From a bacterium (GTDB taxonomy: Bacteria; Patescibacteriota; Minisyncoccia; Minisyncoccales; GBS-2): a stretch of 64,000 nt of DNA. The position numbers and the translations under genes are program-made. The notes beneath the pieces are model-generated. The model had not been told where the DNA came from. It saw nothing but the letters and a program-made list of their open reading frames with translations, and made no database searches. Location: the NCBI GenBank assembly GCA_036803205.1, contig DAIRUS010000001.1:20290-84289 (forward strand), in the 5' to 3' direction. The number at the start of each line of letters is the position of its first letter. The stretch's first letter is position 1. Positions 2,222 through 46,039 of this stretch are shown here, piece after piece.

Positions 2222-2222
2222 A

Positions 2223-4202: not shown

Positions 4203-4203
4203 A

Positions 4204-5745: not shown

Positions 5746-5746
5746 T

Positions 5747-6238
5747 TTAAGGATAGGGTCTGATGATGACCTTTCTTTCTGGTTCTTTTCCAGTGCTTTG
5801 GGTGGTAACATCTCCTCTGCCGGCTAATTCCAAATGAATGATTCTTCTTTCATAAGCTGGCATCGGTGGCAAAACTTTTTCTTTTTTGGTTAAAGCTACT
5901 TCGTCGGCTAAACTTTTGGCTAAATCTTTTAAGTATTTAATTTTTTTCTTTTTATAATCATTAATATCCAAATCAATATAAAAAACTTCTTTCTCTCCAA
6001 AAAGAGAAGTTACATTGAAGGACTGACGTCTCCTTTTCAAAATCGCCTTGAGAAGGTGTTGAATTTCCAGCAGCGTTTGTCCACCCTCTCCAATTAAAAG
6101 CTGGGAGTCATCACTGGTCAGATTAATCGGTAAAGTTAAATCTTTAGGAAGACCTATCTCAATTTTTACCTCAAAGCCCATTTTTTGGAAAAATTCGCTA
6201 ACAATTTTTTTTATTTCTTCTAGATTTTGAGTCTTCAT
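5747..6238 (-). CDS. jag: Jag/KhpB RNA-binding protein (KH + R3H domains)
   Basis: KH-like N-terminus and R3H-like ERRIIHLELAGRGDVTTQSTGKEPERKVIIRP. Canonical position downstream of yidC. Confidence 0.75.
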   Translation of the reverse strand: MKTQNLEEIKKIVSEFFQKMGFEVKIEIGLPKDLTLPINLTSDDSQLLIGEGGQTLLEIQHLLKAILKRRRQSFNVTSLFGEKEVFYIDLDINDYKKKKIKYLKDLAKSLADEVALTKKEKVLPPMPAYERRIIHLELAGRGDVTTQSTGKEPERKVIIRPYP

Positions 6239-6981
6239 GTTTTTAAAATAAGTTTTTGCTGAATAATGGAATAAAGCGAGCTAACCGACCAATAAAGGGC
6301 AATGGCTGATGGCAATTGAATTAAGATGAAAAAAGAAAAAAAGATTAAAAAATAAGTCATTTGTTTTTGAAATAACTGGGGAAAATTTTTTGAACCAGCT
6401 TCTTTTTTCATTTTTGGTTGAGCGGTCCGCATTTGGAGAAAAGACAAAACGGTTGCCAAAATTATCAAAGGAAAAACTGGCCAATAATAGGTTATTTGGC
6501 TTTCAACGGTTAGACTAAAGGATTTAGAAAGGTCTAAAATCCCTAAAAAGAAGGGGGAAATAGTGGTTGGTTTTGGAACAAAATGATAAAGATTTTTTAG
6601 TTCTAGCTCGGCCAAGCCATTACCAAAGGCTCTTAAAACCAAAAAAAGGGCAATCATTACCGGTATTTGAATCAGAGGAAATAAAAATCCACCAAAGGGG
6701 TTGACTTTTTTCTCTCGCCAAAGTTTAAGCGTTTCTTGAACTTGTTTTTCTTTGTCGCCATTATATTTCTTTTGAATTTCCTGAAGTTGAGGCTGAATTT
6801 CTTGTATTGCCTTCTGAATCTTTAAAGAACGAGTCACAAAAGGATGTAAAATAAGCCTGATAAGAAGGGTTAAAAAAATAATCGCTATTCCCAAATCATG
6901 GCCGGGTAAAAACTGGACAAATAAAATCAAAAGATTAAAGATGGGCCGATAGAATATTGTATTAAAAATTTCTCCAATCAT
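6235..6981 (-). CDS. yidC: membrane protein insertase YidC (short form)
   Basis: Polytopic protein with YidC/Oxa1-like core (PFGGFLFPLIQIPVMIALFLVLR). Lies within rnpA-yidC-jag synteny. Confidence 0.8.
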   Translation of the reverse strand: MIGEIFNTIFYRPIFNLLILFVQFLPGHDLGIAIIFLTLLIRLILHPFVTRSLKIQKAIQEIQPQLQEIQKKYNGDKEKQVQETLKLWREKKVNPFGGFLFPLIQIPVMIALFLVLRAFGNGLAELELKNLYHFVPKPTTISPFFLGILDLSKSFSLTVESQITYYWPVFPLIILATVLSFLQMRTAQPKMKKEAGSKNFPQLFQKQMTYFLIFFSFFILIQLPSAIALYWSVSSLYSIIQQKLILKT

Positions 6982-7313
6982 AGATTAATTTTTTTAAAGA
7001 AATTACTAATTATCTCTTTTATTTCCAAAAATTTTTGATTTTCAATTCCGGGAAGGGCAATGAAAATAGCGTCTATTCCTTTTTTAAAACCCTTTATTTC
7101 TCCCCTGACTGCTTCCGTCATTCTCCTTTTAATTTTATTGCGCAAAACCGCCTTTTTGGAAATTTTTTGAGAGACGATAAAGCCAAATCGGCTATAACCT
7201 AAATTATTTGATAGAAACTTAATAATTAAAAACTTTTCTTTAAAACTTTTTCCTTCTTTAAAGATCTTTTCAAAATCTTTTTTCTTTTTCAATCGATTCT
7301 TCTTTGCTAACAT
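6978..7313 (-). CDS. rnpA: ribonuclease P protein component
   Basis: Basic 111-aa protein, LAKKNRLKKKKDFEKIF...RNKIKRRMTEAVR. Located downstream of rpmH. Confidence 0.8.
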   Translation of the reverse strand: MLAKKNRLKKKKDFEKIFKEGKSFKEKFLIIKFLSNNLGYSRFGFIVSQKISKKAVLRNKIKRRMTEAVRGEIKGFKKGIDAIFIALPGIENQKFLEIKEIISNFFKKINL

Positions 7314-7323
7314 TTTTAGGAGC

Positions 7324-7458
7324 TCAAACTGTTAACCGCCAACGACCTTTCTTTTTTCGACGCAGTAAAACTTTCCTTCCACCAGAAGTAAGCTTTCTTT
7401 TTCTGAAGCCGTGAGTTTTTTTTCTTTTTCTCTTTTTCGGACGATAAGTAATTGACAT
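7324..7458 (-). CDS. rpmH: 50S ribosomal protein L34 (44 aa), absent from the ORF track because it is under 60 aa
   Basis: Manual minus-strand translation gives [44 protein letters not shown], then TGA. This is the canonical L34 sequence and C-terminus, upstream of rnpA. Confidence 0.9.
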
Positions 7459-7491
7459 ATCATCTATTTTACTCCGTCAAAATATTTAAGT

Positions 7492-7500
7492 CAATCCACA
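7492..7500. promoter_or_regulatory. weak DnaA-box-like 9-mer (CAATCCACA, 7/9 to TTATCCACA) in the AT-rich rpmH/dnaA divergent intergenic region
   Basis: Direct sequence match. The region 7459-7604 is AT-rich and lies between rpmH and dnaA. Confidence 0.3.
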
Positions 7501-7604
7501 ATTTTTACCCAGTTTATTAACAAAATTTAGCTTTTTGGCTGTCTTTACTTCTTCTTGACTTTATAATATGATATATAAAGTATTCTTAATTTGGGCTCAC
7601 TCAT

Positions 7605-8960
7605 ATGACCAAAGAAGAACTCTGGCAAGCAGTTTTAGCCCAGATTCAACTAACTATTTCTCCGGCTAATTTTGCTACCTGGTTTAAAGACACGGCAATT
7701 GTTTCCCTTCAAGACGGAGTGGCTTTTATCTCTGTTCCAAATTCTTTCGTTAAAGAATGGCTTGAACAAAAATATAACAAAACTATTTTCAAAATTCTTC
7801 ACAGTTTAGATGAAGGAATTAAAGAGATAAAATACGATTTGGGTAAACCCCGACCAAAAATAATTAAAAAAAGTTTTCCCGTCTTGCCAGAAGAAGGTCA
7901 GTTAGAATTTCCCGAATTTAAAGTTGACAAAGAAACAAATCTTAACCCAAGATATACTTTCGATAATTTTATTGTTGGACCGTGTAATGAATTAGCTCAG
8001 GCTGCCGCCTGGGCTGTCTCCCAAAATCCTGGCCAGATTTACAATCCTCTTTTTATTTACGGTGGAGTTGGCTTAGGAAAAACTCATTTGCTCCAAGCAA
8101 TTGGCAATGAAATAGTTAAAAAATTAAATCAAAGAAAAGTTAGATATGTCCAAACAGAAAAATTTATTTCCAATGTCATTTCAGCCATCCGCAACCACCA
8201 AATCGAACAACTTAAGGCACTATATCAACCGATTGACGTTCTTATTATTGATGATATTCAATTTTTAGCCGGAAAAGAAAAAACTCAAGAAGAGTTTTTT
8301 TATATCTTTAATTCTCTCTATGAAAAAAACAAACAAATCGTTCTTTCTTCCGACCGTTCTCCAAAAGCCATTCCAGCTTTAACCGAAAGGCTAAGGTCTC
8401 GGTTTGAAGGAGGAATGATTGCCGATATTACTTTTCCCGATTTTGAAACCAGGATGGCTATTTTAAAAGCAAAGTGTCAAGAAAGAAAAGGTGAATTTTC
8501 CGATGAAATATTAAATTATATTGCCTCAAATATTCAAAGGAATATTAGAAAATTAGAAGGGGCTTTAAACATTTTACTTGCCCACCGAAAACTTCAAGGA
8601 GATTCGCCCAACCTAGAAACAGCCAAGTCATTACTGAAAGACCTCGTCTTATCTCCAGTAAGAGTTATTAATCCAAAAGAAGTCGTCAGGGCAGTGGCTG
8701 ATTTCTATGATTTAAAGGAAAAAGATCTATTTTCTTCCTCTCGAAAAAAAGAAATTGTCAAACCAAGGCAAATAGCTATGTATCTATTAAGGGAAGAATT
8801 AAAAAACTCTTTCCCTTTTATTGGAAGAAAGTTCGGTGGAAAAGACCACACTACCGCCATTCATGCCTATGAAAAAATCTCCAAAGAAATAGAAAAAAAC
8901 GAAAACCTTCGCGAGGAAATTGCCTTAATTAAACAAAGATTTATTAGTGGAGAAATTTAA
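7605..8960 (+). CDS. dnaA: chromosomal replication initiator protein DnaA
   Basis: AAA+ Walker A GGVGLGKTHLLQAIGNE, Walker B LIIDDIQFL, C-terminal DNA-binding domain. 451 aa. Confidence 0.95.
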   Translation: MTKEELWQAVLAQIQLTISPANFATWFKDTAIVSLQDGVAFISVPNSFVKEWLEQKYNKTIFKILHSLDEGIKEIKYDLGKPRPKIIKKSFPVLPEEGQLEFPEFKVDKETNLNPRYTFDNFIVGPCNELAQAAAWAVSQNPGQIYNPLFIYGGVGLGKTHLLQAIGNEIVKKLNQRKVRYVQTEKFISNVISAIRNHQIEQLKALYQPIDVLIIDDIQFLAGKEKTQEEFFYIFNSLYEKNKQIVLSSDRSPKAIPALTERLRSRFEGGMIADITFPDFETRMAILKAKCQERKGEFSDEILNYIASNIQRNIRKLEGALNILLAHRKLQGDSPNLETAKSLLKDLVLSPVRVINPKEVVRAVADFYDLKEKDLFSSSRKKEIVKPRQIAMYLLREELKNSFPFIGRKFGGKDHTTAIHAYEKISKEIEKNENLREEIALIKQRFISGEI

Positions 8961-14876: not shown

Positions 14877-15965
14877 TTAATCTATTTTTCTTCGGTAATC
14901 AAATTTCTTTTTGAGAAGTAGAATTGTTAATCCAGAGAAAGCAGCAGTGGTTAGAGCGGGAAGAAAAACAAAAAGAAATTTTGACATTTTTTCTTTTAAA
15001 TCTTCTTGTCCAAAAGGGGTAATGACTGTTGCCAGCTCTTTTTTGTCCGATTCTATTTTTAGAAAAGCCAACTCAGGGTCAACCCAGGCCAATCCTTGTT
15101 TTTTAATTTCTTCCAGTTTCCTTTCTCCAAGTCCTTTTACTCGGGTTAACTCATCTAAAGAGTGAAATGGTCTGGCGCTGATTATTCTTTGAGCCAATAC
15201 TTTACCGATGCCGACTAGCTTCTGGAGTTCTTTTGCCGAGGCAGTGTTTATATCTATTTTGAGAGGTTCGACTATATTCGGGTTAACGGTTGTTTTCGAG
15301 GGGATGAATTGTTCTTGGGGGCGGGATGTTTCCTCGTTAGGTTGAAGAGGCTCTACCTTAGACTCTGATTGGGATTTTTCTTGGAATGATTGAGAAGGAG
15401 GGGTTAATTCAAAATCATTAGCATTATTATTTGTATCCTGATAAAGTCCGGCTATTTTTTTTCTTTCTAATTTTTGATTAGGGCCAGGATTTTCCGGAAA
15501 AGAGTTTCCTTCAAAAAGAAGGTTGTCGAAATCGCCCCAGCCAACAGCGTCAATAATTCGACCGGTGTTTTCTTGCCCCAATCTTAAAGCCACGCCATTA
15601 TTTGGAGCAATAGTTTGGGAGGTTGAAGTCTCGACATTGGAGAGAGCTGTATAATCTTTATTTGTCCAGAGATAATATCCTTTGGCCGGAATTTTAGCGT
15701 TTGGTTCTTTTGACCAGGATTTGATAGTATAATCTTTAGCGCTAGTTTTTGTCCTTTTGACCAATCTGATATAGCTGCCTTGATAATTCCCAAGATAGAT
15801 ATCAGAGTTAGTAGGATTGTAAATTTTTATAAAATCGTCAGAAGTTTTTTCTCCGGCAATTTGAACTTCAACAATTAAAAGCTCGGTGGCTAAAGCTAAT
15901 TTTAGAGGAATTAAAGAGATAAATCCCACCGTTAAGAAAACGTTTATTCTTGACAAATTTCTCAT
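14877..15965 (-). CDS. ComEA-like helix-hairpin-helix DNA-binding protein fused to an N-terminal lamin-tail (LTD) domain, with a C-terminal TM helix
   Basis: HhH pair INTASAKELQKLVGIGKVLAQRI...LTRVKGLGERKLEEIK. LTD-like LLIVEVQIAGEKTSDDFIKIYNP...GYYLW. N-terminal signal/TM and C-terminal hydrophobic tail. Confidence 0.65.
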   Translation of the reverse strand: MRNLSRINVFLTVGFISLIPLKLALATELLIVEVQIAGEKTSDDFIKIYNPTNSDIYLGNYQGSYIRLVKRTKTSAKDYTIKSWSKEPNAKIPAKGYYLWTNKDYTALSNVETSTSQTIAPNNGVALRLGQENTGRIIDAVGWGDFDNLLFEGNSFPENPGPNQKLERKKIAGLYQDTNNNANDFELTPPSQSFQEKSQSESKVEPLQPNEETSRPQEQFIPSKTTVNPNIVEPLKIDINTASAKELQKLVGIGKVLAQRIISARPFHSLDELTRVKGLGERKLEEIKKQGLAWVDPELAFLKIESDKKELATVITPFGQEDLKEKMSKFLFVFLPALTTAAFSGLTILLLKKKFDYRRKID

Positions 15966-16107
15966 AATCTGTTAATATAAGGATTATCCCGGAACCAAGC
16001 CTGGAATTTCTTTCAATTCGGACAACCTGGAGAAGTTCTGGGTTGCTCCTTGAAGAAATTCTGACTTAAGCAGCAAGCTTTTGGCCCCTTTGGTTCCGGG
16101 ATATTTT

Positions 16108-17406
16108 TTATTCAGCAGTCACCCTTTCTATTTCCTCGAAAGTTGTTTTTCCTTCTAAAACTTTAATATATCCATCGAGATGCATTTCGACCATTCCTTT
16201 TTTTATTGCCAGCTCCTTCAAATCGACAATTGAAGGGTTGGTTAAAATAAACCTTTCCATCTCGTCATCGACAACAAAGACTTCAAAAATACCCATCCTT
16301 CCTTTGTAACCGGTAAAATTACAACTTCGACAACCCTTAGTCACAGGAACTTTCATCCATGACCTTAGCTCTTTGACTTTCACGTTTTTAGGAAGACCCT
16401 TAAATGCCTCTTGTAATTTAGTCAAGCGTTCAGACGAAATTAGCTGGAATTGGACGCATTCTTTGCAGACCTTTCTGACTAACCTTTGACCAATAACTAA
16501 ATTTAAGGCGGGAGCGATATTACTTAGTTTTTCTCCTAAAGATTGTAAGCGAGCGACCGTGCCAGCGGCATCATTGGTATGCACGGTGGTAAGGACCAAA
16601 TGACCGGTTAAGGCTGCTTGGAAAGAGATTTGAGCGGTTTCAGAATCGCGGATTTCTCCGACTAAAATAACATCTGGGTCTTGTCTGACAACCGCTCTTA
16701 GGGCATTAGCGAAAGTGTAGCCTTTTGATTCGTCAACTTGACTCTGAGAAACTCCTTTTAAGTGATATTCGATGGGGTCCTCGATAGTGATGATTTTAAT
16801 TTCTGGAGAAGTTAGTTTTTGAAGAAAAGCATAAAGGGTGGTGGTTTTTCCTGAACCAGTCGGACCAGTACAGATAATCATTCCGGTGGGTTTTTTTAGT
16901 TCCTCATAAAAAACTTTCAGCATATCTTCTCTTAAATCAAGGTCTTCCATGCTCACTACCCACTTTGGGTTTAGAATTCTCATTACTATTGCTTCTCCAT
17001 ATTCAGAGGGGAGAGAGGAGGTTCTGATTTCAATCGAGGTATCTTCAATTAAAAGAGAAAAACGACCATCTTGAGGCCGGTTGGTTATATTGAGTTTTAA
17101 ACCGGAGAGAAGTTTCAAACGGGAAAGCAAAGCTTGATAAACAGCAAGGTCTAACAATAAAACATCATGCAAAACTCCGTCAATTCGGATGCGTAAAAGA
17201 ACATTTTCTTTTTTTGGCTCTAGATGGATATCGGAAGCGTCAAGGTAGAGAGTGCCGATTAGGAGGATTTCAACTAAGCCGGTTATTTCTCCGGAGAGAA
17301 GTCTTTCAATTTCTTTCTTGAAATCTAAGATACATTTTATTTTTTCTTTGGCGACCAAAGTTTTTTCCGGTGAAATTTTGACTTGGCCGGTGAGTTTTTC
17401 TCTCAT
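16108..17406 (-). CDS. type II/IV secretion-family ATPase (PilB/GspE/ComGA-like)
   Basis: Walker A ICTGPTGSGKTTTLYAF. Asp box, His box and C-terminal tetracysteine (CKEC...CRSC) typical of PilB/GspE. Adjacent to ComEA-like. Confidence 0.8.
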   Translation of the reverse strand: MREKLTGQVKISPEKTLVAKEKIKCILDFKKEIERLLSGEITGLVEILLIGTLYLDASDIHLEPKKENVLLRIRIDGVLHDVLLLDLAVYQALLSRLKLLSGLKLNITNRPQDGRFSLLIEDTSIEIRTSSLPSEYGEAIVMRILNPKWVVSMEDLDLREDMLKVFYEELKKPTGMIICTGPTGSGKTTTLYAFLQKLTSPEIKIITIEDPIEYHLKGVSQSQVDESKGYTFANALRAVVRQDPDVILVGEIRDSETAQISFQAALTGHLVLTTVHTNDAAGTVARLQSLGEKLSNIAPALNLVIGQRLVRKVCKECVQFQLISSERLTKLQEAFKGLPKNVKVKELRSWMKVPVTKGCRSCNFTGYKGRMGIFEVFVVDDEMERFILTNPSIVDLKELAIKKGMVEMHLDGYIKVLEGKTTFEEIERVTAE

Positions 17407-30371: not shown

Positions 30372-30800
30372 ATGGAAAAACCTTCAATCCAAGGAGAACC
30401 CCCACTTGAAAAAGGAATGTCAGCTGAAGAACATCCTGAAATTGAAGAATTAAAAAAGAGAATTGAAAAACTGGAAGCGCGTTTAGAAAGAAAAAAAATA
30501 CCCGAGGAAAGAGAAAAGATTATTAAACAGGAAATTAAGGCTTACCTTCAAAGGATTCAAAAAATGCCTTCTTTTGCCGCTCCTCGGACAGCGAGAGATG
30601 AAGCAAAAGAAATAGCAGTTCTTCCCCCCAGCCAACAAGTTGGAGCCTTAATTTCTCTTGTTTTTGAAAAAAGCTTAAAAGAAGCAATCTCGATTGCTAG
30701 GACCCTTAATAATCCAGCGATTTTAGACGAATTTCATGATATTTTAGTTGACCGTTATTATCAAACTCTTGTTGAAAAAGGAATTTTAAAATCTTTATAA
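30372..30800 (+). CDS. hypothetical coiled-coil protein, translationally coupled to the downstream T4CP gene
   Basis: Charged coiled-coil N-terminus. Stop lies 3 nt before the T4CP start. No recognisable motif. Confidence 0.4.
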   Translation: MEKPSIQGEPPLEKGMSAEEHPEIEELKKRIEKLEARLERKKIPEEREKIIKQEIKAYLQRIQKMPSFAAPRTARDEAKEIAVLPPSQQVGALISLVFEKSLKEAISIARTLNNPAILDEFHDILVDRYYQTLVEKGILKSL

Positions 30801-30802
30801 AA

Positions 30803-33265
30803 ATGCCATTTTTTTTCTTGAATTTGATTTTCTTTTTCTTATTTCTTTTTATACTATTTTTTATCATTTACCTCTTTTTAAGGGGTGGGAAAATAAAAGG
30901 TTTTTTTAATCGGAGTATGAACCTGGCTCTTTTTTTGGTCACTCTTCCTCAACGGATTGAAAAAGAAATTTCTTTGCCAGAACATCTCAAGCTAGCCGAA
31001 CAATTCTATGCTTCTTTAGCTGGTCTTCAAGAAAAAAATAAATTTTTAAAATTTTTAATCGGCAATCCGGTCTTAGTTTTCGAAATTGCTGTCCATCGAA
31101 TTGGAGAGGAAATTTATTTTTATGTCGCTTGCCCCCGATCGATTTCTCAGTTAATGGAGAAGCAAATTCTCGGCTTTTGGCCCAAAGCCCAAGTTCAGCC
31201 GGTTTCTGACTATAATATTTTCAATCCGGTTGGTTTTTCGGTTGGGAGCGAGGCTTTTTTGGCAAAGTCAGCTGTTTTACCATTGAAATCTTCAAAAGAT
31301 TTTGGAACCGATCCCCTTTCAGCTATCACTTCGGTTTTTACCAAATTAGCCCGCGAAGGAGAAGGAGCGGCTATTCAAATTTTATTTCGACCGAGTCAAT
31401 CTCAAATTAAGAAAATTAGTCAGAACGTGATTAATCTATTAAAAGGCGGAATGCAACTTGAAGGAGCTTTAAAAAATGCTCAGGCAGCCACCGGTATTGG
31501 CGGTTTTCTTAAAGTCCCAGGTGAAATCTTCTCAGCTAAACCTATTCAAACAACAAAAACCTCTGAGAAAACTTTTTTTCCGCCACCAATCACCGCCGAA
31601 CAACAAGAGATTATATCTACCCTTGATAAAAAATCAGCCCAACCTCTTTTTGATGTTAATCTAAGAATTTTAACCTCTGCCCTCACCGAAATCAGGGCTC
31701 AAGAAATTCTTAGCCAATTGGAGATTTCTTTTGGACAATTCAACAGCCCGGTTTTAAATCAGATTAAATTTAAAAAACTCTCAGGCCGGAGGTTAAAAGA
31801 GCTTTTTTATAATTTTTCTTTTAGAATTTTTAATGAGTCGGCAACAATGCTTCTTTCTTCAGAAGAATTAGCCAATCTTTATCATTTTCCCTCTTCAAGC
31901 TTGCTCACCCCTTACATCAAATGGTTGAAAGGCAGACAGGCTCCTCCGCCCCCAAATCTTCCCCGAGAAGGCATTATTATTGGCAAAAATGTTTTTCGCT
32001 CTGAAGAAAGGTTGGTTCCAATTTTGAGAGACGACCGACGACGTCACTTTTATATCATCGGCCAGACAGGAACGGGAAAATCAGTTTTACTCCAAGAGAT
32101 GATGAGGCAAGATATGAGGGTTGGCGAAGGCGTAGCCTTGATTGATCCCCACGGCGATTTAGCCGAAAGAGTTTTAGGATTGATTCCTTCTTCTCGGATT
32201 GAAGATGTGATCTATTTTGATCCTGGGGATATTGAAAGACCGCTTGGTTTAAATATGCTTGAATACGATATTAAATTTCCCGAATCAAAAATTTTTGTTG
32301 TCAATGAGCTTTTGGAAATTTTTGAAAAACTCTATAATCTCAAAGCCTTAGGTTTTGGGGGGCCGGTTTTCGAGCAATATATGAGAAATGCCCTTTTATT
32401 GGTAATGGAAGATCCCGAATCGGGAAACACTTTAATTGAAGTCCCAAGAGTTTTAGCTGATAAAGATTTTCGGAAATATAAACTTTCGCGCTGCCAAAAT
32501 ATAGTAGTCAAAAATTTCTGGGAGTTAGAAGCAGAAAAAGTCGGCGGAGAAGCGGCTTTAGCCAATATGGTTCCTTACCTCACCAGTAAAATGAATATTT
32601 TTATTGCCAACGATTTAGTCCGACCGATTATTGCTCAACAATCTTCTTCTTTTAATTTCCGAGAAGTAATGGATCAAGGAAAAATTTTAATTATTAACCT
32701 TTCTAAAGGCAAATTGGGTGATATAAATAGTTATCTTTTAGGAATGATTACTGTGGGTAAAATTTTAATTGCTGCTTTTTCTCGGGCCGATATTCCCGAA
32801 GAAAAGAGGCGGGATTTTTATCTTTATATTGATGAATTTCATAATGTGACCACCAGAACGATTATTTCCGCCCTAGCTGAAGCAAGAAAATATCGGCTCA
32901 ATTTAATTCTTTCCCATCAATTCATCGGGCAACTTGACGAAGAAACGAGGAAGGCTATTTTTGGCAACGTTGGTTCAATGTTAACCTTTAGATTAGGACC
33001 TGACGATGCAAAATATTTGATTACTGAGTATGAACCGGTTTTTGATGAAAATGACTTTGTTAACCTCGACAATTATAATGCCGCCCTACGCCTTCTGATT
33101 AATGGTGAAGCTTCCAAACCTTTTAACATTGTTACTTTTCCGCCGAGCAAAAGTAATCCTGAGGTTGCTAAACTTGTAAAAGAATATTCCCGTGCTAAAT
33201 ATGGTCGTGACCGTACCTTAGTAGAGTCAGATCTCTATCAGCGACTTTCAAAAAGTTATTTTTAA
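30803..33265 (+). CDS. type IV secretion coupling protein (TrwB/TraD/VirD4 family ATPase)
   Basis: N-terminal TM helices. Walker A FYIIGQTGTGKSVLLQEMM, then VALIDPHGDL (compare TrwB ...GATGTGKSVLLREL...VIVDPNGDM, recalled from memory). Walker B YLYIDEFHNV (T4CP-type DEF). LILSHQ. Confidence 0.75.
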   Translation: MPFFFLNLIFFFLFLFILFFIIYLFLRGGKIKGFFNRSMNLALFLVTLPQRIEKEISLPEHLKLAEQFYASLAGLQEKNKFLKFLIGNPVLVFEIAVHRIGEEIYFYVACPRSISQLMEKQILGFWPKAQVQPVSDYNIFNPVGFSVGSEAFLAKSAVLPLKSSKDFGTDPLSAITSVFTKLAREGEGAAIQILFRPSQSQIKKISQNVINLLKGGMQLEGALKNAQAATGIGGFLKVPGEIFSAKPIQTTKTSEKTFFPPPITAEQQEIISTLDKKSAQPLFDVNLRILTSALTEIRAQEILSQLEISFGQFNSPVLNQIKFKKLSGRRLKELFYNFSFRIFNESATMLLSSEELANLYHFPSSSLLTPYIKWLKGRQAPPPPNLPREGIIIGKNVFRSEERLVPILRDDRRRHFYIIGQTGTGKSVLLQEMMRQDMRVGEGVALIDPHGDLAERVLGLIPSSRIEDVIYFDPGDIERPLGLNMLEYDIKFPESKIFVVNELLEIFEKLYNLKALGFGGPVFEQYMRNALLLVMEDPESGNTLIEVPRVLADKDFRKYKLSRCQNIVVKNFWELEAEKVGGEAALANMVPYLTSKMNIFIANDLVRPIIAQQSSSFNFREVMDQGKILIINLSKGKLGDINSYLLGMITVGKILIAAFSRADIPEEKRRDFYLYIDEFHNVTTRTIISALAEARKYRLNLILSHQFIGQLDEETRKAIFGNVGSMLTFRLGPDDAKYLITEYEPVFDENDFVNLDNYNAALRLLINGEASKPFNIVTFPPSKSNPEVAKLVKEYSRAKYGRDRTLVESDLYQRLSKSYF

Positions 33266-33421: not shown

Positions 33422-34102
33422 ATGCCTGAGTTTGGATTTCAATTTGAAGGGAAACCTCAACAACCTAAAACGGAAAGAAGAGAAGACAGAGAAGAAAGGG
33501 AAAGAAGAGAAAAAATAGCCCATGTTCAGGAACTTGTTTCACCCACTAGCAAAAGAGACGACCTTTATGAACTGATAACAAGGGAAGTTTACAAAGGAAG
33601 TGACTTGCAAGAAGAGCGTAAAGCCAGATTAAGGGAAATTGGATACGACCCTAATTACTTAGAACAAGTAGGGAAAGATAATATAAGGCGCTGGGAAGAA
33701 TTGATAAATAAAACAAGCTTTGAAGGAGGATTATCTCCACGAGAACAGGAAGAATCCAAAAGGCTTTTTGGTTTATGTTTTAGAGAACAAGAAGGAAAAG
33801 GATTTCGGCATTCTGAATTAACTATCGGAGCTATGACTGAATTTTCAAGACAAATAGGAAAGCTAATGGCGGCAGGATTAGAAGGAGACCCTAAAAAACG
33901 AGAGGAAACATTTTTTGGATCGTCGTCGGTCGAAATTTCGCCCCAAATGGTAGAAAGATTTGTTAAAGAAAGAAACTCAGAAAAGATGGAAGAAGTTGCC
34001 AAAAAGATGAATTCTATTATTGAAAAAATTGAGAGTCCAGATAAGCAAAAACAATATACGGCGATCAGAGGATTTTTATTTCGAGAATCCAAAGAAAAAT
34101 AA
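33422..34102 (+). CDS. hypothetical charged (K/E/R-rich) protein
   Basis: ORF only. Low-complexity N-terminus. No motif recognised. Confidence 0.4.
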   Translation: MPEFGFQFEGKPQQPKTERREDREERERREKIAHVQELVSPTSKRDDLYELITREVYKGSDLQEERKARLREIGYDPNYLEQVGKDNIRRWEELINKTSFEGGLSPREQEESKRLFGLCFREQEGKGFRHSELTIGAMTEFSRQIGKLMAAGLEGDPKKREETFFGSSSVEISPQMVERFVKERNSEKMEEVAKKMNSIIEKIESPDKQKQYTAIRGFLFRESKEK

Positions 34103-34205
34103 GACGTTAAAGTAGAACGAAAATTTGCCTCGTACGTCTAAAAAATAAAAGTAAAAACATTGGAAAGTTTATCGGCCAGAAATAGAAAAAGAAAATAAAA
34201 TTATT

Positions 34206-35006
34206 ATGCCTTTTGAACAAGAAAAATTTGAAAGACCACCGGAAATAAATCCAAAACAAGAAGGTAAAGAAAAAAAAGAAAAGGAGGAAGAAAAATTCAG
34301 AGAATTTTTAGCTCAACAAATTTCTCGTCCAGAAGGTGAGTGGAGTGAAGAATTTAGAAATTATATTAAAAAAAAGGATCGTGAAAAAACCGATTGTGAA
34401 AAAACCGCCGAGATTCTAGAAAGATCTATAGAAGAAGAACAGCAATTAACATTTGAAAGGTATCTTAAGGGACTGGATTTAAGGGAAGAAGATTTAAGGA
34501 GAAAAAGGATATTGGATTTGGGTTGTGGAAAGGGAGAATTTGTAAAAGAATGTTTGGAAAGAAAATTAACTTCTAAGGCTTATGGTTTAGATTTAAAAGT
34601 AGAACCCTCAGACCATTTTATCCAAGGGAACTTTGAAGATAAAGCCTCTTTTTCAAAAATTCCTCAAGAAGAATTCGACTATATTGTCTCTTTTGGCGCC
34701 ATAGAAGCTCCGGCCTCTGAAGAAGAGGAAGGGGTTTTTAATCCAAGAGCAACATTAAAGAATGCTTTAGGTGTACTTAAAGAAAATGGCGAGATTAGAA
34801 TTTATCCTCTTCGTAGAGCCCCTCCTGAAAGTGGATTAAAAGGAATTGAATTTGCCAGAAAGAAATGGATGGAGACATTAGAAACTTTATTTAAAGAAGA
34901 GAACATTAAATATGAACTGAAACCAATTGATATTGGGGTAGATGGAAAAAAACCCGATGTTTGGTTAAAGGAAGTTTTAATAATTAAAAAAGGAAAATCT
35001 CGTTAA
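34206..35006 (+). CDS. hypothetical protein with class I SAM-methyltransferase-like motif I
   Basis: RILDLGCGKGEFVKE... (motif I) ...LDLK (motif II acidic). Highly charged N-terminal 90 aa. Confidence 0.45.
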   Translation: MPFEQEKFERPPEINPKQEGKEKKEKEEEKFREFLAQQISRPEGEWSEEFRNYIKKKDREKTDCEKTAEILERSIEEEQQLTFERYLKGLDLREEDLRRKRILDLGCGKGEFVKECLERKLTSKAYGLDLKVEPSDHFIQGNFEDKASFSKIPQEEFDYIVSFGAIEAPASEEEEGVFNPRATLKNALGVLKENGEIRIYPLRRAPPESGLKGIEFARKKWMETLETLFKEENIKYELKPIDIGVDGKKPDVWLKEVLIIKKGKSR

Positions 35007-35052
35007 TTTCTACGCTTCAAAAAAAGAAAAGCGTTAATAATCAAAAAAAATA

Positions 35053-35907
35053 ATGAAATTTGAAAAATTTGAAAGTTTTAGCCAAAAGATTGAACAAGTC
35101 GGAAGCAGAGAACAGAAAGAAAGAGACATAGAGAGAAAGAGGGGGATAGAAACGTTAAATAGCAAAATTGAAGAAGACGTCGAAAGATTAAGAGAATTTT
35201 TACCACTGACAGCTGAAGGTCGCATTGATCCTAATAGTTTTGAAGAAGTTTATTCTCGAGAGAAAATAGAAGAGGATAAAAAATGGACACAAGCTAAAGA
35301 AGAAGAATATAAAAGTAGAGGAAATCCCGAGGCGAGAAAAAAGGGAGAATTAAGGGAAAAAGTTACCCTATTAATTTTGAATAAATTTTTCGGGCCATTA
35401 ATAACGGTTAGAACGGCAGAGATAGATGATAAGAAGCGACATAGCGATTTTCTTTTTTTTGACCCGGAAAGTGGAAAGGTGATTTGCGGAGCCGATAGTG
35501 GTTCGCCGGAAGGACCACTGCATCAAGAAAAAAAGAAAACGATTTTTGAAAAAAACATAGGGGTTTTGCCAGGAGAAGGAGGGGTGAAAATAGATTACGG
35601 AGCGATTTTAAGGAAAAGAGGCGACAAGATTGAAACCATTCTTACTTCTCTTTCTCGTCTTCCTCTTTTTGGCGTTTACATTTCAGATAATGAAATGGAA
35701 GAATATTTGCAGACTTTAGGTCGTCAAGATTACTCAGAAACCGAAAAAATAGAAAGAAAAATCGCTCGAAATATCACCCAAAATTTTCAAGAACAAGCTG
35801 CAACATTAAAAAAAGAAAAATTGCACCCGAGGGTAGCTGAAGGAATCGAATCTTTTGAAAAAGTTTTGAACTCTATTTCGAAAAATTTAGAAAATAAAGA
35901 ACAATAA
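35053..35907 (+). CDS. hypothetical protein, paralog A of a two-member family
   Basis: KGELREKVTLLILNKFFGPLITVRTAEIDDKKRHSDFLFFDPESGKVICGAD... aligns with the next gene. Confidence 0.45.
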   Translation: MKFEKFESFSQKIEQVGSREQKERDIERKRGIETLNSKIEEDVERLREFLPLTAEGRIDPNSFEEVYSREKIEEDKKWTQAKEEEYKSRGNPEARKKGELREKVTLLILNKFFGPLITVRTAEIDDKKRHSDFLFFDPESGKVICGADSGSPEGPLHQEKKKTIFEKNIGVLPGEGGVKIDYGAILRKRGDKIETILTSLSRLPLFGVYISDNEMEEYLQTLGRQDYSETEKIERKIARNITQNFQEQAATLKKEKLHPRVAEGIESFEKVLNSISKNLENKEQ

Positions 35908-35911
35908 CACT

Positions 35912-36754
35912 ATGCCATTTGAAAGTCTTGAAAAAAGACCTTCTATTTCAGAGAAAAAAGATGAATCTCGCGAAAAGCTTGAAACTATACTCGGAAAACT
36001 GGCTGAAGGGCTAGGCAAATTAGGTTTTCCGATAGATACAGAATGCCGGATTAAACCCGAAGTTTTTTCAAAAATAATTCCATCGGAAGAAATTAAAAGG
36101 GATTTAAAATATGTTGGAGAAATGGAAGAAAAATTTTCGGCCGAAGATAAAAGTAAAGAAAAAAAGGGTGAATTGTTAGAAATGTATGTTACTCTTTTAT
36201 TGAATAAATATTTAAACAAAGAAAAATTTGCCATTGTGAGAACTTCGAGATATGACGATATTAAAAATGGTGCCGATCATCTTTTCCTTGATATTAAAAC
36301 GGGCGAAGTTGTTGGTATTTTTGATGTCGTTTCGGCTGTGGGAGATGAACGTCACAGAGAAAAAACTCAGAATTTTTTTGAAAATAATTTAGGTAAATTA
36401 CTGGGGGGAACCGAAATCAAATATGGGATAGGGATAAAAAAAGAAGATGGCAAAATTTTATTTGAACCTCGCTCTTATACAAAAACGCCCCTTCCTCTTT
36501 TTTGTCTTGCTCTTAGCCCAGAAGAACTAGAAACGGCTATTAAAAAATTTAATTCTCCAGAAAAAGAGGATAGGGAGTATGAAAGAAAAATGGCGCTTTA
36601 TTTTTTACTTTGCCTTCAATATCAATGCGAACTTTTAGAGAAAAAAGAATTAGTTTTAAAACCAACGCTTTACGAGAAAGTCAAGCATTTAAAAGAGAAC
36701 CTAGATCCTATCGTGAAAAAACATCAAGAAGACCTCAGGTTAAGGAATTTTTAA
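35912..36754 (+). CDS. hypothetical protein, paralog B
   Basis: KGELLEMYVTLLLNKYLNKEKFAIVRTSRYDDIKNGADHLFLDIKTGEVVGIFD... aligns with the previous gene. Only 4 nt separate the two. Confidence 0.45.
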   Translation: MPFESLEKRPSISEKKDESREKLETILGKLAEGLGKLGFPIDTECRIKPEVFSKIIPSEEIKRDLKYVGEMEEKFSAEDKSKEKKGELLEMYVTLLLNKYLNKEKFAIVRTSRYDDIKNGADHLFLDIKTGEVVGIFDVVSAVGDERHREKTQNFFENNLGKLLGGTEIKYGIGIKKEDGKILFEPRSYTKTPLPLFCLALSPEELETAIKKFNSPEKEDREYERKMALYFLLCLQYQCELLEKKELVLKPTLYEKVKHLKENLDPIVKKHQEDLRLRNF

Positions 36755-41631: not shown

Positions 41632-42063
41632 ATGGAGAAATATGAAATTTTAGAACATAGGGCAGATCTAAAAATCAGGATTTTTGGTAAAACCAAAAAA
41701 GAATTATTTCAGAATGCCCTTTTAGGAATGAGTGAAAGTATGAAGGCCGAAATTGAAAGCCCGGCAGAAAAAGTAAAAAGAAAAGTTAGAATAGAATCGT
41801 TTGATTTGCCTTCTTTATTGGTTGATTTTTTAAGCGAGATTCTTTATTTGAGTCAGGTTAATAAAGAGGTCTATTTTGAGGTGAAGTTTAAAAAATTTTT
41901 TGTTCCGTTAACAAGCTCAAGACAGGCTGAAATAGAGTGTGAACTAATCGGTCAAAAAGTAGAGAGATTCGGCAAAGACATAAAGGCGGTGACTTATCAC
42001 GATTTGGACATTCGTCAGAGAAAAAATAAAACCTGGCAGGCAACAGTGCTTTTTGATATATAA
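41632..42063 (+). CDS. archease (RtcB activator)
   Basis: YEILEHRADLKIRIFGKTKKELFQNALLGM matches the archease N-terminus (consensus recalled: [30 protein letters not shown]). 143 aa, upstream of rtcB. Confidence 0.75.
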   Translation: MEKYEILEHRADLKIRIFGKTKKELFQNALLGMSESMKAEIESPAEKVKRKVRIESFDLPSLLVDFLSEILYLSQVNKEVYFEVKFKKFFVPLTSSRQAEIECELIGQKVERFGKDIKAVTYHDLDIRQRKNKTWQATVLFDI

Positions 42064-42192
42064 GTTGGTTTTTAGGTTTAATTTTTTCAATCTCTATTGA
42101 TTTGACTTTCCCACAGGAATACCACAAGATTTTTTAATTGGGCTAGATAAGAAAGCCTTTTCTTTTTAGAAAACTTAAGCTAAAATGGGAAT

Positions 42193-43641
42193 ATGATTTC
42201 AAAAAAAGATTTTAGAAAAATTTCAGAGTTTCTTTGGGAAATTCCAAAAACTTTTAGGGCAAATATGCGAGTTCCGGCAAGAATTTATGTTTCTGAAAAG
42301 ATGTTAGAAGAAGTATTTCGAGATCAATCGATTCCTCAATTAATCAATGGCACCACCCTTCCGGGAATAGTAAAATATGGCATTGCCATGCCTGACTGCC
42401 ATGAAGGATATAGTGTGCCTATCGGATTTGTTGGGGCATTAAGAGTTTCTGACGGAATTATTTCTCCTGGAGCAGCAGGGTTTGATTTGAATTGTGGAAT
42501 GAAACTTTTAAAATCGGAATTATCAGAAAAAGATATAAAGCCATATTTAGAGAAGCTGGCAACAGAAATTCAGAAAGAAGTACCTTCGGGACTTGGCCGA
42601 GGAGGACAAATAAAACTTTCTTTTGAGGAGATTAATAAAATTTTAGAGGGCGGAGCTCAAAAGATGGTCCAACAAGGTTTTGGCGAGAAAGAAGATATAG
42701 AAAATTGTGAATCTCATGGAAGATTAAACTGGGCCGACGCCTCAACTGTTTCTTCGCGAGCTAAAAATCGAGGAAGGGACCAGTTGGGAACCTTGGGAAG
42801 CGGAAATCATTTCCTCGAAATTCAAAAGGTGGCTGAGGTTTTTGATGAGAAAACAGCCGAAGCTTTTGGATTGTTTAAAGACCAAATTGTAACGATGATT
42901 CATACCGGTTCGCGCGGGCTCGGACATCAGGTTTGTACTGATTATTTAAGGGAATTTATTCCGGTAATGGAAAAAAAGTATAAAATCAATGTTCCTGATA
43001 GAGAATTTGCCTGTGTACCATTCAATTCGCCAGAGGGTCGAAGGTATTTTTCAGCTATGGCCTCGGCCGCCAATTATGCCTGGGCTAATCGCCAAATGAT
43101 CGCCCACTTTATTAGAAAAGCCTGGAAGTCAGTTTTGGGTGAGAAAGACAGTTATTTGGTGGCTCTTTATGATGTTGCTCACAATATTATTAAAAAGGAA
43201 AAATATATTATTGATGGTAAAGAAATTGAAGTGATTGTTCATCGTAAAGGATCCACCCGGGCTTTTCCTCCGGGCCACCCGGAAATCCCTGAAAGATATC
43301 GAAATGTCGGTCAACCAGTTTTAATTCCCGGCTCAATGGGAACTGCCTCTTACGTTCTAGTTGGAACCAGAGAAGGAGAGGAAGCTTTTTTCTCGACTTG
43401 TCATGGCGGAGGTCGGACAATGTCTCGACACGAAGCCATGAGACGAGTTTCTGGAAAAGAAGTAGTAAAAAGTTTAGAATCAAAAGGAATTATTGTTAAG
43501 TGCCGGTCTTTGAGGGGTATTGCCGAAGAGGCGCCCCTAGCATATAAAAACATTGATGAGGTAGTAGAGATAGTCCATAATGCTGGTCTATCAAAAAAAG
43601 TAGCAAAATTGATGCCATTGGCAGTAATTAAGGGAGAATAA
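42193..43641 (+). CDS. rtcB: RNA-splicing ligase RtcB
   Basis: RtcB motifs DLNCGM, GSGNHF, HRKGSTRA, plus C-terminal His/Cys metal ligands. 482 aa. Confidence 0.85.
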   Translation: MISKKDFRKISEFLWEIPKTFRANMRVPARIYVSEKMLEEVFRDQSIPQLINGTTLPGIVKYGIAMPDCHEGYSVPIGFVGALRVSDGIISPGAAGFDLNCGMKLLKSELSEKDIKPYLEKLATEIQKEVPSGLGRGGQIKLSFEEINKILEGGAQKMVQQGFGEKEDIENCESHGRLNWADASTVSSRAKNRGRDQLGTLGSGNHFLEIQKVAEVFDEKTAEAFGLFKDQIVTMIHTGSRGLGHQVCTDYLREFIPVMEKKYKINVPDREFACVPFNSPEGRRYFSAMASAANYAWANRQMIAHFIRKAWKSVLGEKDSYLVALYDVAHNIIKKEKYIIDGKEIEVIVHRKGSTRAFPPGHPEIPERYRNVGQPVLIPGSMGTASYVLVGTREGEEAFFSTCHGGGRTMSRHEAMRRVSGKEVVKSLESKGIIVKCRSLRGIAEEAPLAYKNIDEVVEIVHNAGLSKKVAKLMPLAVIKGE

Positions 43642-43860
43642 ATGGACTAAAAATTAAGGTCCAAAATGGAAAATTATAGTTTAAAATTTAAAAACTTTGA
43701 AAACCTAACAACCCCTTTTTTTCTATGGAAAGACATCGTTTGCCAAGGTCAATCAGAAAGTTTATTCGAGAGGAAAAGGCGAGAATTCGGCGAGAAGTTT
43801 TAGATTTGCAACAACAAGAAAAATTAATCACTCAGCTTTATCAAAAATTTTTCAATCAAT

Positions 43861-44808
43861 ATGCGAATAAGAGAAATATTCAATCTGGCGATTCAAAAGG
43901 GGATTGAGGCCGATTTTCGGGGGAAAAAGACCATTGAAGAGATTTTGGTCAGAAAAAGAGAAAAATATCAAAAACTTTCTGAAAAAGAAAAAGATTATTT
44001 TGACAAAGAGGCATTAAAAAATCCCTATTTAGATTCAAGGATTTTAAACATCGCTCAAGAGAAAGAAGTTAAAAAAGTTTTGGTTGGCATTGATATTGAA
44101 CCAGCCGAAATTTTAATGGCAAAAGAAATTGGCGGAATTGATTTAGTTATTTCTCATCACCCCTTAGGAAAAGGTTTAGCTAATTTACATGAAGTAATGG
44201 AGCTGCAGTGCGATATTTTGAATTTATATGGCCTGCCAATTAATGTAGCGGAAAAATTGATGAAAGAAAAAATTTCTGAAGTGGCAAGAGGAATAAACAG
44301 AGTGAACCATCAGAGAACAGTTGATGCGGCAAAAATTTTAGGATTAAATTTAATGTGTCTCCACACTGTCACCGACAATTTAGCCGCCAAATTTTTAAAA
44401 GCAAAAGTAGAGAAGGAAAATAGTTTAATGAGATTAGAAGATTTATTGGATCTTTTGAAAGAAATCCCGGAATACAAAGAAGCGGCAAAAATTGGAGCTG
44501 GCCCAAAAATTTTCGTTGGCGACAAAGAAGCAAGATGTGGCAAAATTGCGGTTACTGAAATTACTGGTGGAACCGAGGGCTCACCAAAGATTTATGAAAA
44601 AATGGCCATTGCTGGAATTGGAACCGTCATTGGAATGCATATGGAAGAAGAGCATAAAAAAGAAGCCGAAATAGCTAACATTAACGTTGTCATTGCTGGT
44701 CACATGAGTTCGGATTCTTTGGGAATGAATCTTTTTTTGGATGAATTAGAAAAGAGGGGAATTGAAATTATACCCTGCTCGGGATTAATTAGAGTCCAAC
44801 GGTTTTGA
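43861..44808 (+). CDS. Nif3/YqfO-family dinuclear-metal-centre protein
   Basis: VLVGIDIEPAEILMAKEIGGIDLVISHHPL (NIF3 HHP motif) and C-terminal IAGHMSSDSLG (GHY.SE-like). Confidence 0.55.
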   Translation: MRIREIFNLAIQKGIEADFRGKKTIEEILVRKREKYQKLSEKEKDYFDKEALKNPYLDSRILNIAQEKEVKKVLVGIDIEPAEILMAKEIGGIDLVISHHPLGKGLANLHEVMELQCDILNLYGLPINVAEKLMKEKISEVARGINRVNHQRTVDAAKILGLNLMCLHTVTDNLAAKFLKAKVEKENSLMRLEDLLDLLKEIPEYKEAAKIGAGPKIFVGDKEARCGKIAVTEITGGTEGSPKIYEKMAIAGIGTVIGMHMEEEHKKEAEIANINVVIAGHMSSDSLGMNLFLDELEKRGIEIIPCSGLIRVQRF

Positions 44809-44896
44809 TTTTCCTTAATTTTTCTGGCAAAGCAATAAATTGAGATTTTTACAAAATTAATTGGCCCAAAAGCCAGTTTTTTGATAAAATTAAAGT

Positions 44897-46039
44897 ATGC
44901 GCACAGGGATTGCCACGATTCCGTTAGATTATGGCCGTTGTCCGCGATGGCTTTTTGAGAGAATGAAGAGATTGAGTCGAAGTATTGTCATAGCTATTGT
45001 TGAAGAATTTGGGGTTGAAGAATTTTTAAAGCGTCTTTCCGATCCCATATGGTTTCAGAGTTTTGGATGCGTCCTTGGTTTTGACTGGAATAGCAGCGGT
45101 CTGGGGGTTACTACCCTAGGTGCCCTAAAAGTGGGGCTTTTTGATCTCCAAGACCGGTTGGGAATTTATGTTTGCGGTGGCAAAAGAGAATCGAGAAAGA
45201 CGCCGGAAGAGATTATTGCTTACGGAATATCGCGGGGTTTTGATTTTGCCAACAATTTAGTTTATGCCTCAAAAATGGCAGCGAAGGTTGATTCAGCTTT
45301 AATTCAGGATAATTATTCTCTTTATCATCATAATTTTATTTTTACCAAAGATGGCAAGTGGATTGTAATTCAGCAGGGAATGAATTTGGAGAACCAAACT
45401 GCCCGACGTTACCATTGGCTTTCTTCAAGTTTAAGGAGTTTTACTGAAGAACCTCACTCTGGGATTATTTCTGGCTCAAAATTAAGATTAAAACCTTTAA
45501 ATTTGGTTGCCAAAGAAAGCAAGGAAAATAAAGAAATTTCGACCGAATTAGTTAGAGAGGAGCCAAAAACATTTTTACGCGATATTAAATTAATTTCAGA
45601 AAAATCAAATACCTTAATTAAACAAAGAAGATTTGAAAATTTTGCCGAAATAGAATTAAAAAATGTTGAATTTCGTCACCATCCAGTTGAAAAAGAGAAA
45701 TTTGATTTAAGAAGATTAGAAAAAACCATTTTTGTTGCCCACGGAGAAAAACCAGAAAACTTTGAGAAGCTTTTATCTTTAAAAGGAGTAGGACCAAAAA
45801 CCATTCGAGCCCTTTCTTTAGTTAGCGAATTAATCTATGGTGCTCCACCATCTTATGAGGACCCAGCTCGTTATTCTTTCGCCGTGGGTGGGAAAGACCA
45901 TACGCCAATGCCAATTCAACGAGATGTTTATGACCAACTATTATCTATAATGGAAAAAGGAATTAAAAAAGCAAAAATTTTTCACCGAGAAAAAATAGAA
46001 GCCCAAAGGAGATTATATGGTTTGGTTAAAAATAACTAA
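44897..46039 (+). CDS. uncharacterised conserved protein (DUF763-like), with an HhH-like segment
   Basis: N-terminus ...CPRWLFERMKRLSRSIV... recalled as DUF763-like (from memory). KGVGPKTIRAL HhH. Assignment uncertain. Confidence 0.3.
   Translation: MRTGIATIPLDYGRCPRWLFERMKRLSRSIVIAIVEEFGVEEFLKRLSDPIWFQSFGCVLGFDWNSSGLGVTTLGALKVGLFDLQDRLGIYVCGGKRESRKTPEEIIAYGISRGFDFANNLVYASKMAAKVDSALIQDNYSLYHHNFIFTKDGKWIVIQQGMNLENQTARRYHWLSSSLRSFTEEPHSGIISGSKLRLKPLNLVAKESKENKEISTELVREEPKTFLRDIKLISEKSNTLIKQRRFENFAEIELKNVEFRHHPVEKEKFDLRRLEKTIFVAHGEKPENFEKLLSLKGVGPKTIRALSLVSELIYGAPPSYEDPARYSFAVGGKDHTPMPIQRDVYDQLLSIMEKGIKKAKIFHREKIEAQRRLYGLVKNN

Follow-up and report, generated by a model that had tools for sequence, protein, structure and literature searches.

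Two adjacent genes of a patescibacterium (GTDB lineage Minisyncoccia; Minisyncoccales; GBS-2) encode a membrane-anchored ATPase whose motor resembles that of type IV coupling proteins (T4CPs), preceded by a small partner protein. They lie on the forward strand of a 64,000-nucleotide stretch of contig DAIRUS010000001.1 (assembly GCA_036803205.1, positions 20,290 to 84,289), hereafter called the window, as open reading frames (ORFs) of 142 amino acids (aa; 30372–30800) and 820 aa (30803–33265). On balance, we favour the reading that the locus encodes a Patescibacteria-specific, DUF8128-type coupling-protein-like ATPase with an obligate small partner, which would serve as the coupling or energising ATPase of a relaxase-less type IV secretion system (T4SS). 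We are highly confident about the identity and architecture of the pair; its functional link to a T4SS is a serious possibility that we put forward tentatively. Profile searches and structural models divide the 820-aa protein into a transmembrane (TM) helix, a VirB4-like head and a VirD4-like motor, an architecture unlike that of canonical T4CPs.

The motor domain

Database searches returned a protein identical to the product of the 820-aa ORF and more than 6,000 close matches, and its Walker residues are invariant among relatives, so the ORF is not a chance one. The sizes and positions of both ORFs, as well as the Walker motifs quoted in an original prediction made from the DNA letters, agreed exactly with our own. 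The P-loop ATPase domain of T4CP type covers residues ~404–800 (32012–33202), as delimited by Pfam, NCBIfam, PDB sequence searches and a Foldseek match to TrwB. Its Walker A region, IIGQTGTGKSVLLQE, occupies residues 418–432 (32054–32098), with Walker A itself at 32060–32083, followed by VALIDPHGD at residues 444–452 (32132–32158) and by Walker B, YIDEFHN, at residues 675–681 (32825–32845). Across a panel of 38 diverse family members with a mutual identity of ~40 %, G420, G423, G425 and K426 of Walker A and D677 and E678 of Walker B did not vary, and the ATPase is presumably active because these residues are invariant. Between Walker A and Walker B lies a helical insertion (residues ~477–611, 32231–32635) that sequence alignment places at the position of the TrwB all-alpha domain; its helices are predicted at a local confidence (pLDDT) below 50 in the AlphaFold2 (AF2) model.

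Profile searches pointed consistently towards coupling proteins. Pfam TrwB_AAD_bind (PF10412) matched the 820-aa protein at 42.1 bits against a cut-off of 20.5, T4SS-DNA_transf was borderline, and NCBIfam gave weak TraD-type matches. TrwB was the best sequence relative in the PDB, whether the search started from the single protein (1e-9) or from a family profile (5e-10); the family profile matched HerA (2e-3) and DotL (7e-3) marginally, and neither VirB4 nor FtsK at all. In the panel, TrwB_AAD_bind was detected in all 38 members, TraG-D_C (PF12696) in 35 (best E = 3e-8) and T4SS-DNA_transf (PF02534) in 23 (best E = 3e-12). Foldseek with the full model aligned TrwB to the ATPase half only, at E ~3e-7 over ~360–390 columns.

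A few P-loop motifs may of course mislead, and the protein could be an FtsK/HerA-type or VirB4-type ATPase mislabelled as a T4CP. Such an error would fit the shortness of its Pfam T4CP matches, which cover the Walker A and Walker B segments, a weak DUF87/HerA match above its cut-off (27.2 versus 23.2 bits) and the fact that VirB4 is the best whole-chain structural match. We consider it very unlikely, however, since T4CP-specific profiles dominate the panel while the other types stay marginal, their best values among the 38 members being 8e-4 for FtsK_SpoIIIE, 7e-4 for HerA_C, 0.015 for P-loop_TraG and 0.001 for AAA_10. On the 820-aa protein itself, FtsK_SpoIIIE (E = 0.05) and HerA_C (E = 0.006) remained under the Pfam cut-offs, and the VirB4-type profiles P-loop_TraG (PF19044) and AAA_10 (PF12846) reached E = 0.09, short of a VirB4 assignment; in the panel these two gave weak matches in 8/38 and 6/38 members, respectively. 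By comparison, the true VirB4 of the same genome scores 8e-32 on P-loop_TraG, and the PDB profile search separates TrwB from HerA by the values given above. Neither a HAS-barrel nor an FtsK gamma domain was found in the protein, which thus does not qualify as HerA or FtsK. Judged by its sequence, the C-terminal motor is of the T4CP type (VirD4/TrwB/TraD) and not of the FtsK, HerA or VirB4 type, so that the original assignment of the ATPase half holds, and the reclassification as FtsK/HerA that it had allowed for did not occur.

The N-terminal half

A single strong TM helix begins the protein (~residues 3–26, 30809–30880), apparent both in hydropathy, where the best 19-residue segment (residues 8–26) has a Kyte-Doolittle value of 3.26, and in the AF2 model, where a helix spans residues 2–39. 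It is followed by a basic stretch, RGGKIK, because of which the remainder of the protein is taken to be cytoplasmic, giving an inferred N-out, C-in topology. Residues ~30–400 had no match in our Pfam scan, the model set of which did not include PF26449. That family, DUF8128, appears in the precomputed annotation of the identical protein (P0001) and of each of the 120 top homologues and places the domain at residues ~36–368 (30908–31906); it comprises 1,548 clusters at 50 % identity, and we found no mention of it in the literature searched.

In the full-length AF2 model the DUF8128 domain is confident and the insertion in the motor poor. Foldseek ranked R388 TrwK/VirB4 first for this model, with E ~1e-11 and ~840–936 aligned columns along the whole chain. 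When residues 27–372 were modelled alone (pLDDT 81.8, predicted TM-score 0.82), the significant PDB matches consisted of 14 TrwK/VirB4 chains only, with E values from 4.8e-6 to 1.2e-3 and query TM-scores of 0.42–0.48; the next match was unrelated (E = 0.02). DUF8128 is thus predicted to be an alpha/beta domain that folds like the N-terminal domain (NTD) of VirB4. The protein is therefore no textbook TrwB/VirD4: its membrane anchor is a single TM helix where two are usual, and a VirB4-NTD-like domain of ~340 residues separates this anchor from the motor.

The small partner protein

In the 142-aa protein, a linker connects a charged N-terminal helix to a conserved helical module at the C-terminus (residues 94–137, 30651–30782); the protein has neither a Pfam family nor a TM segment. 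Its family numbers 303 matches, found on the same contigs as ATPase homologues. The C-terminal module carries the motif NNPxxLDEFHDxLV and, in relatives in which partner and ATPase are fused, always abuts DUF8128. The module was delimited with a profile of the small proteins and by BLASTP to one such fusion, P0247, the N-terminus of which corresponds to this module only (48 % identity, E = 1e-11). The partner profile likewise matched the N-terminus (residues ~10–130) of 27 of 150 DUF8128 representatives.

In all relatives first inspected (L001–L005), the partner gene lies directly upstream of the ATPase gene, and we scored the arrangement in 80 loci of GTDB species genomes. The partner is fused in front of DUF8128 in 32/80 loci, in all of which the ATPase has no TM helix (hydropathy <0.7); in 26/80 this type-1 partner is a separate upstream gene, with a gap of −4 to 183 nt, and almost all of these ATPases have the TM helix. 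A different conserved small protein is encoded upstream in 11/80 loci, from ABY1-type lineages, again with the TM helix present. Seven loci lie at a contig edge with no upstream DNA, and four were unclear. The type-1 partner, separate or fused, therefore accompanies 58/80 loci and an alternative small partner 11 more, with an almost complete dichotomy between TM helix and partner fusion.

The ATPase and the small upstream protein, its obligate partner, belong to one functional unit, because the latter is fused in front of DUF8128 in many lineages. This Rosetta-stone pattern shows that both proteins act together, on the cytoplasmic side, and that the membrane anchor varies with lineage. It thus bears out the tie to the small upstream ORF made in the original prediction. 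The translational coupling also proposed for the two ORFs is putative, being read from their spacing of 2 nt between the TAA stop codon of the first (30798–30800) and the ATG of the second (30803); in relatives this gap varies over the range given above. No terminator was detected between the two ORFs in our scan, and a scan for promoter-like sites was uninformative (12 found versus 8.8 ± 3.2 expected).

The alternative partner of the ABY1-type lineages (Komeili-, Falkow- and Uhrbacteria; loci L025, L026, L030, L032, L034, L036, L038, L052, L056, L065 and L078) has 150–182 aa and a C-terminal motif, WLKIIPGVNKFFLEQEAKIKTD. This protein may be the analogous partner in these lineages and may carry a helix that is amphipathic or membrane-seeking.

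Distribution and genomic setting

At least 598 species genomes, from Paceibacteria and ABY1-type groups, encode the pair, in every case among core genes. Upstream of it in the window lie fpg, holA and rpsT, and downstream uvrB, confirming the core-gene neighbourhood described before. The larger ORFs of the window, all of which were scanned against Pfam, are housekeeping or metabolic genes; G+C content is uniform at ~34 %. The order fpg-holA-[pair]-uvrB-mur ligase-archease-rtcB-nif3 is common to the window and the relative L004, between which the ATPase is 69.5 % identical, compared with 73 % for UvrB, 72 % for NIF3, 64 % for RtcB and 46 % for HolA. The ATPase thereby exceeds RtcB, PilB, PBP1, S20, HolA and Fpg and is surpassed by UvrB and NIF3 only; VirB4 and the DUF8128 ATPase are conserved to a similar degree. 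Across the 80 loci the small partner is the only consistent direct neighbour, other recurrent ones being SecY-Adk-Map, Ndk, DnaX, an RNase J-like protein, RmuC and ribosomal proteins.

The pair is a chromosomal, vertically inherited core module and not a conjugative remnant, which settles the question of core versus mobile that had been raised for it. An orphan remnant of an integrative and conjugative element (ICE), or an anti-phage defence island of MADS or HerA type set among core genes, would account for a PADLOC mad8 match on the ATPase (E = 1.3e-15), a weak mad2 match on a methyltransferase 1 kb downstream and four ORFs between the ATPase gene and uvrB that vary between relatives. It is nevertheless hardly credible. 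Because PDB homologues went into building the MADS profiles, mad8 works as a generic profile for TrwB/HerA-like ATPases, and MAD6, MAD7 and MAD8 are all mandatory within 10 genes, yet no neighbour matches MAD6 or MAD7; on these two grounds a MADS or HerA defence system was rejected. The mobile element was rejected as well, given the conserved synteny of a pair present in so many species at ~70 % identity across genera, together with the lack of a G+C anomaly, integrase, relaxase or adjacent tRNA around the pair, the sole tRNA of the window being ~20 kb away, and with flanking repeats limited to AT-rich chance matches.

In fused-partner lineages (for example L045, L064, L066, L073 and L074), the ATPase gene ends the L15-SecY-Adk-Map block, an operon region that ranks with the best conserved in bacteria. 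Ndk follows immediately downstream in nine loci of these lineages, and DnaX lies within four genes in 13.

The T4SS cluster of the same genome

Pfam scans of all larger ORFs revealed no VirB4, VirB6, VirB11 or relaxase in the window, as originally stated, and no second T4CP-like gene was found there. The gene pair is, however, no orphan. A contig (L006, ENA contig k141_94755) that matches the window at 99.83 % identity along 12.2 kb extends upstream of position 1 and carries a T4SS cluster directly next to the window. The upstream part encodes a 776-aa protein with seven TM helices, a PrgI/VirB3-like protein, a TraC-like/TrsD protein, a 589-aa VirB4, a 109-aa protein and T4SS_pilin-domain proteins, VirB4 being split here into the TraC-like/TrsD and 589-aa proteins. 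The T4SS_pilin proteins (VirB2-like, matching PF18895) run into the window on the forward strand at 45–5745, together with a 2-TM protein, and are followed by jag, yidC, rnpA, dnaA and dnaN. The cluster spans 1–14592 on L006, virB4 lies ~32 kb from the ATPase gene, and the cluster tail within the window lies about 25–32 kb upstream of that gene. The window begins within a gene for a 649-aa protein, of which ORF 45–1166 is the 3' portion. The pilin-like proteins at 45–5745, suggested earlier as a possible partner channel, are thus indeed the tail of a T4SS cluster; a functional connection to the ATPase is what we infer.

Three successive large proteins of the cluster (649, 352 and 662/676 aa) combine an N-terminal T4SS_pilin (VirB2-like) domain with long extensions, and the 2-TM protein after them has 506/552 aa. 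The 776-aa protein, with ~7 TM helices and no Pfam match, is a VirB6-like candidate. Over 12.2 kb, 12 substitutions and a single 9-nt indel distinguish the window from k141_94755. Coordinate offsets place the indel at ~2221–7605 of the window, between the pilin genes and dnaA and probably inside the 662/676-aa pilin-domain gene, pointing to a surface protein whose length varies between strains.

Proposed role

In the arrangement that we favour, the ATPase would form a membrane-associated hexamer like its relatives, tethered by its TM helix in split forms and by the fused partner in fused forms. The VirB4-like head and the partner would dock it either to inner-membrane parts of the T4SS (PrgI/VirB3-like and VirB6/8-like proteins) or to the VirB4 ring. 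In the R388 structures, VirB4 contacts VirB3 and VirB8 through its NTD. The target would be the cluster beside dnaA, ~32 kb away, which the ATPase could serve by recruiting substrates or by supplying energy, the substrate being one that no relaxase pilots, either protein or nucleic acid, passed between the bacterium and its host cell. Such a coupling role appears vacant because the patescibacterial T4SS cluster has no recognisable coupling protein: the cluster of Ca. Southlakia epibionticum was described as lacking both recognisable coupling and relaxase proteins (PMC10633639, Wang et al. 2023).

A published census of 3,035 Patescibacteria genomes reported VirB4 in 2,417 of them and 5,713 VirD4-type T4CP homologues in 2,918 (96 %), with relaxases in 103 genomes only and T4SS often near dnaA (PMC12102498, Quinonero-Coronel et al. 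2025). In part of its Table S3, Paceibacteria genomes have several T4CP calls each, including one high-coverage t4cp1 far from virB4 and, in the same genomes, separate t4cp2 matches (TcpA/FtsK-like). A t4cp1 row with 87 % coverage in that part, for GCA_000991405.1, is probably the L071 protein. Together with the T4SS just outside the window, this census largely accounts for the gene as first framed, an orphan T4CP: it is one of a class of T4CP homologues already known throughout the lineage.

Several observations weigh against a T4SS-coupled role. Only 148 of the 5,713 T4CP homologues in the census lie near virB4, genomes with a T4CP homologue (2,918) outnumber those with VirB4 (2,417), and in the same part of Table S3 VirB4-negative drafts retain t4cp1 matches. 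In Ca. Southlakia epibionticum, t4cp was dispensable for epibiotic growth while T4SS genes were essential (PMC12102498). VirB4, PrgI or TraC-like genes lie within 10 kb of the ATPase gene in 0/80 of our loci, the recurrent neighbours being replication, repair and nucleotide genes instead (holA, dnaX, uvrB, recO, rmuC, ndk and adk), and the fused forms have no TM helix at all. The resemblance to the VirB4 NTD is of moderate strength, as it is seen in predicted structure only (TM-score ~0.45). By hhalign, DUF8128 and the VirB4 NTD did not match significantly, either as single sequences or with a low-diversity profile of 120 patescibacterial VirB4 sequences (Neff ~2, E = 0.13), and only a 15-residue motif before Walker A was aligned (LNTEELASIFHFP versus MNTxPLSSxFPF). 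In addition, the all-alpha domain of the motor was not modelled with confidence.

The same gene could instead encode a T4SS-independent housekeeping translocase, that is, a hexameric motor derived from VirB4/VirD4 and exapted for a core task on nucleic acids in the cytoplasm or at the membrane, for example the import and processing of DNA or RNA, the handling of the chromosome or its repair. This is consistent with a gene that always lies among core genes and never beside virB4, with the neighbours just listed, with conservation on a par with UvrB, with fused forms devoid of a membrane anchor and with T4CP homologues that are more widespread than VirB4 and kept in VirB4-negative drafts. Exaptation was also considered possible by the authors of the census (PMC12102498), and Patescibacteria take up host RNA and DNA by a route left unresolved: in a 2026 preprint, a cultivated patescibacterium took up host RNA and formed tubes resembling T4SS pili, without the transport route being settled. 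We nonetheless regard a housekeeping translocase as the less likely reading, if a serious rival. Neighbourhood is weak evidence in mostly housekeeping genomes of ~700 genes, an FtsK-type role is probably already filled by the separate t4cp2, and missing VirB4 genes in draft metagenome-assembled genomes may reflect incompleteness. The Southlakia homologue, moreover, may not be a DUF8128 member. Both domain types, the VirB4 NTD and the T4CP motor, are otherwise hallmarks of T4SS-type machines. In its most specific form, the proposal would make the DUF8128 ATPase and its partner a near-universal patescibacterial translocase, VirB4-headed and VirD4-motored, that handles host-derived or chromosomal nucleic acid independently of any T4SS, which seems to us rather improbable. 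If true, it would represent a surviving architectural intermediate between VirB4 and coupling proteins, bearing on the origin of T4CPs as well as on how reduced cells acquire and process macromolecules.

Returning to the coupling or energising ATPase that we favour, its interest lies in the biology of the ultra-small Patescibacteria, which account for much of bacterial diversity, live in dependence on host cells and require their T4SS in the sole genetically tractable species. As neither a coupling protein nor a relaxase has been recognised for this T4SS, and no substrate is known, the gene pair, whose ATPase is among the most conserved genes of these genomes, is an obvious candidate for the missing ATPase. 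The VirB4-NTD-like head and the constant small partner, separate or fused, offer handles for experiments. Should the module work without a T4SS, parts of conjugation machinery would have been turned to a new core function.

Other features of the window

Between the ATPase gene and uvrB, four ORFs at 33422–36754 form a small variable islet that is missing in the syntenic relative L004. They encode a charged 226-aa protein, a 266-aa S-adenosylmethionine-dependent methyltransferase and a paralogous pair of 284 and 280 aa (32 % identity, E = 1e-27), for which no Pfam, NCBIfam or PADLOC match was found.

On the reverse strand at 14877–17406, a ComEA-like protein (lamin-tail and helix-hairpin-helix) adjoins a PilB/T2SSE-type ATPase, a pairing kept in L004; this is the competence or type IV pilus apparatus to which the original prediction alluded. 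At 41632–46039, paired genes for archease and the RtcB RNA ligase precede those for NIF3 and a DUF763 protein, the RNA repair or splicing genes being syntenic with L004. Two DUF2229/HGD-D-like proteins and a BcrAD/BadFG-type activator ATPase at 56864–59770 form a module resembling 2-hydroxyacyl-CoA dehydratase, unexpected in a metabolically reduced genome.

Comparison with known systems

With VirD4, TrwB and TraD, the 820-aa protein shares the motor profile, including TraG-D_C in most relatives, intact Walker A and B motifs and an N-terminal membrane anchor. A helical insertion is predicted at the position of their all-alpha domain, at low model confidence (pLDDT <50). Small partners of coupling proteins are known, as with TraM and TraD. 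The small helical CagZ, in complex with Cag-beta (PDB 8dol), was among our Foldseek results. The present ATPase differs in having one TM helix or none (none in 32/80 relatives), in contrast to the two-helix TM domain that directly precedes the nucleotide-binding domain of these proteins, and in the ~340-aa VirB4-NTD-like domain between its anchor and motor. Its gene is unlinked to relaxase, DNA-transfer (Dtr) or mating-channel genes and is chromosomal, core and vertically inherited, whereas theirs are borne on plasmids or ICEs.

The likeness to VirB4, TrwK and TraC lies in the two-domain layout, an N-terminal domain of ~400 aa joined to an ATPase of ~400 aa, in a DUF8128 model whose PDB matches are VirB4 NTDs only and in the LNTEELASIFHFP motif, which in both stands at the corresponding position ahead of Walker A. 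A TM helix followed by a VirB4-like head is also reminiscent of VirB3–VirB4 fusions. On the other hand, the ATPase domain of the DUF8128 protein does not match VirB4-type profiles, the N-terminal domains have no significant profile similarity, the gene does not adjoin VirB3/PrgI, and the genome has a separate bona fide VirB4.

A third parallel is found in Gram-positive T4CPs without TM helices that are recruited by a small partner, such as TraJ with TraI of pIP501. A soluble T4CP-like motor, a separate small protein and a variable motor anchor recur here; unlike in that system, our partner has no TM segment, and the anchor resides on the ATPase in split forms and is missing in fused forms.

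The census of Patescibacteria describes the same situation as observed here, with T4CP homologues away from virB4, relaxases nearly absent and T4SS by dnaA (PMC12102498). It was based on CONJScan profiles, and its t4cp1 class may correspond to the DUF8128 family; a VirB4-like head, a small partner or a dichotomy of fusion versus TM helix is not described there. What is new here is the level of conservation, the placement, according to the models, of a head that matches the VirB4 NTD only among solved structures on a VirD4-like motor, and a partner that is either fused or separate, in alternation with the TM helix.

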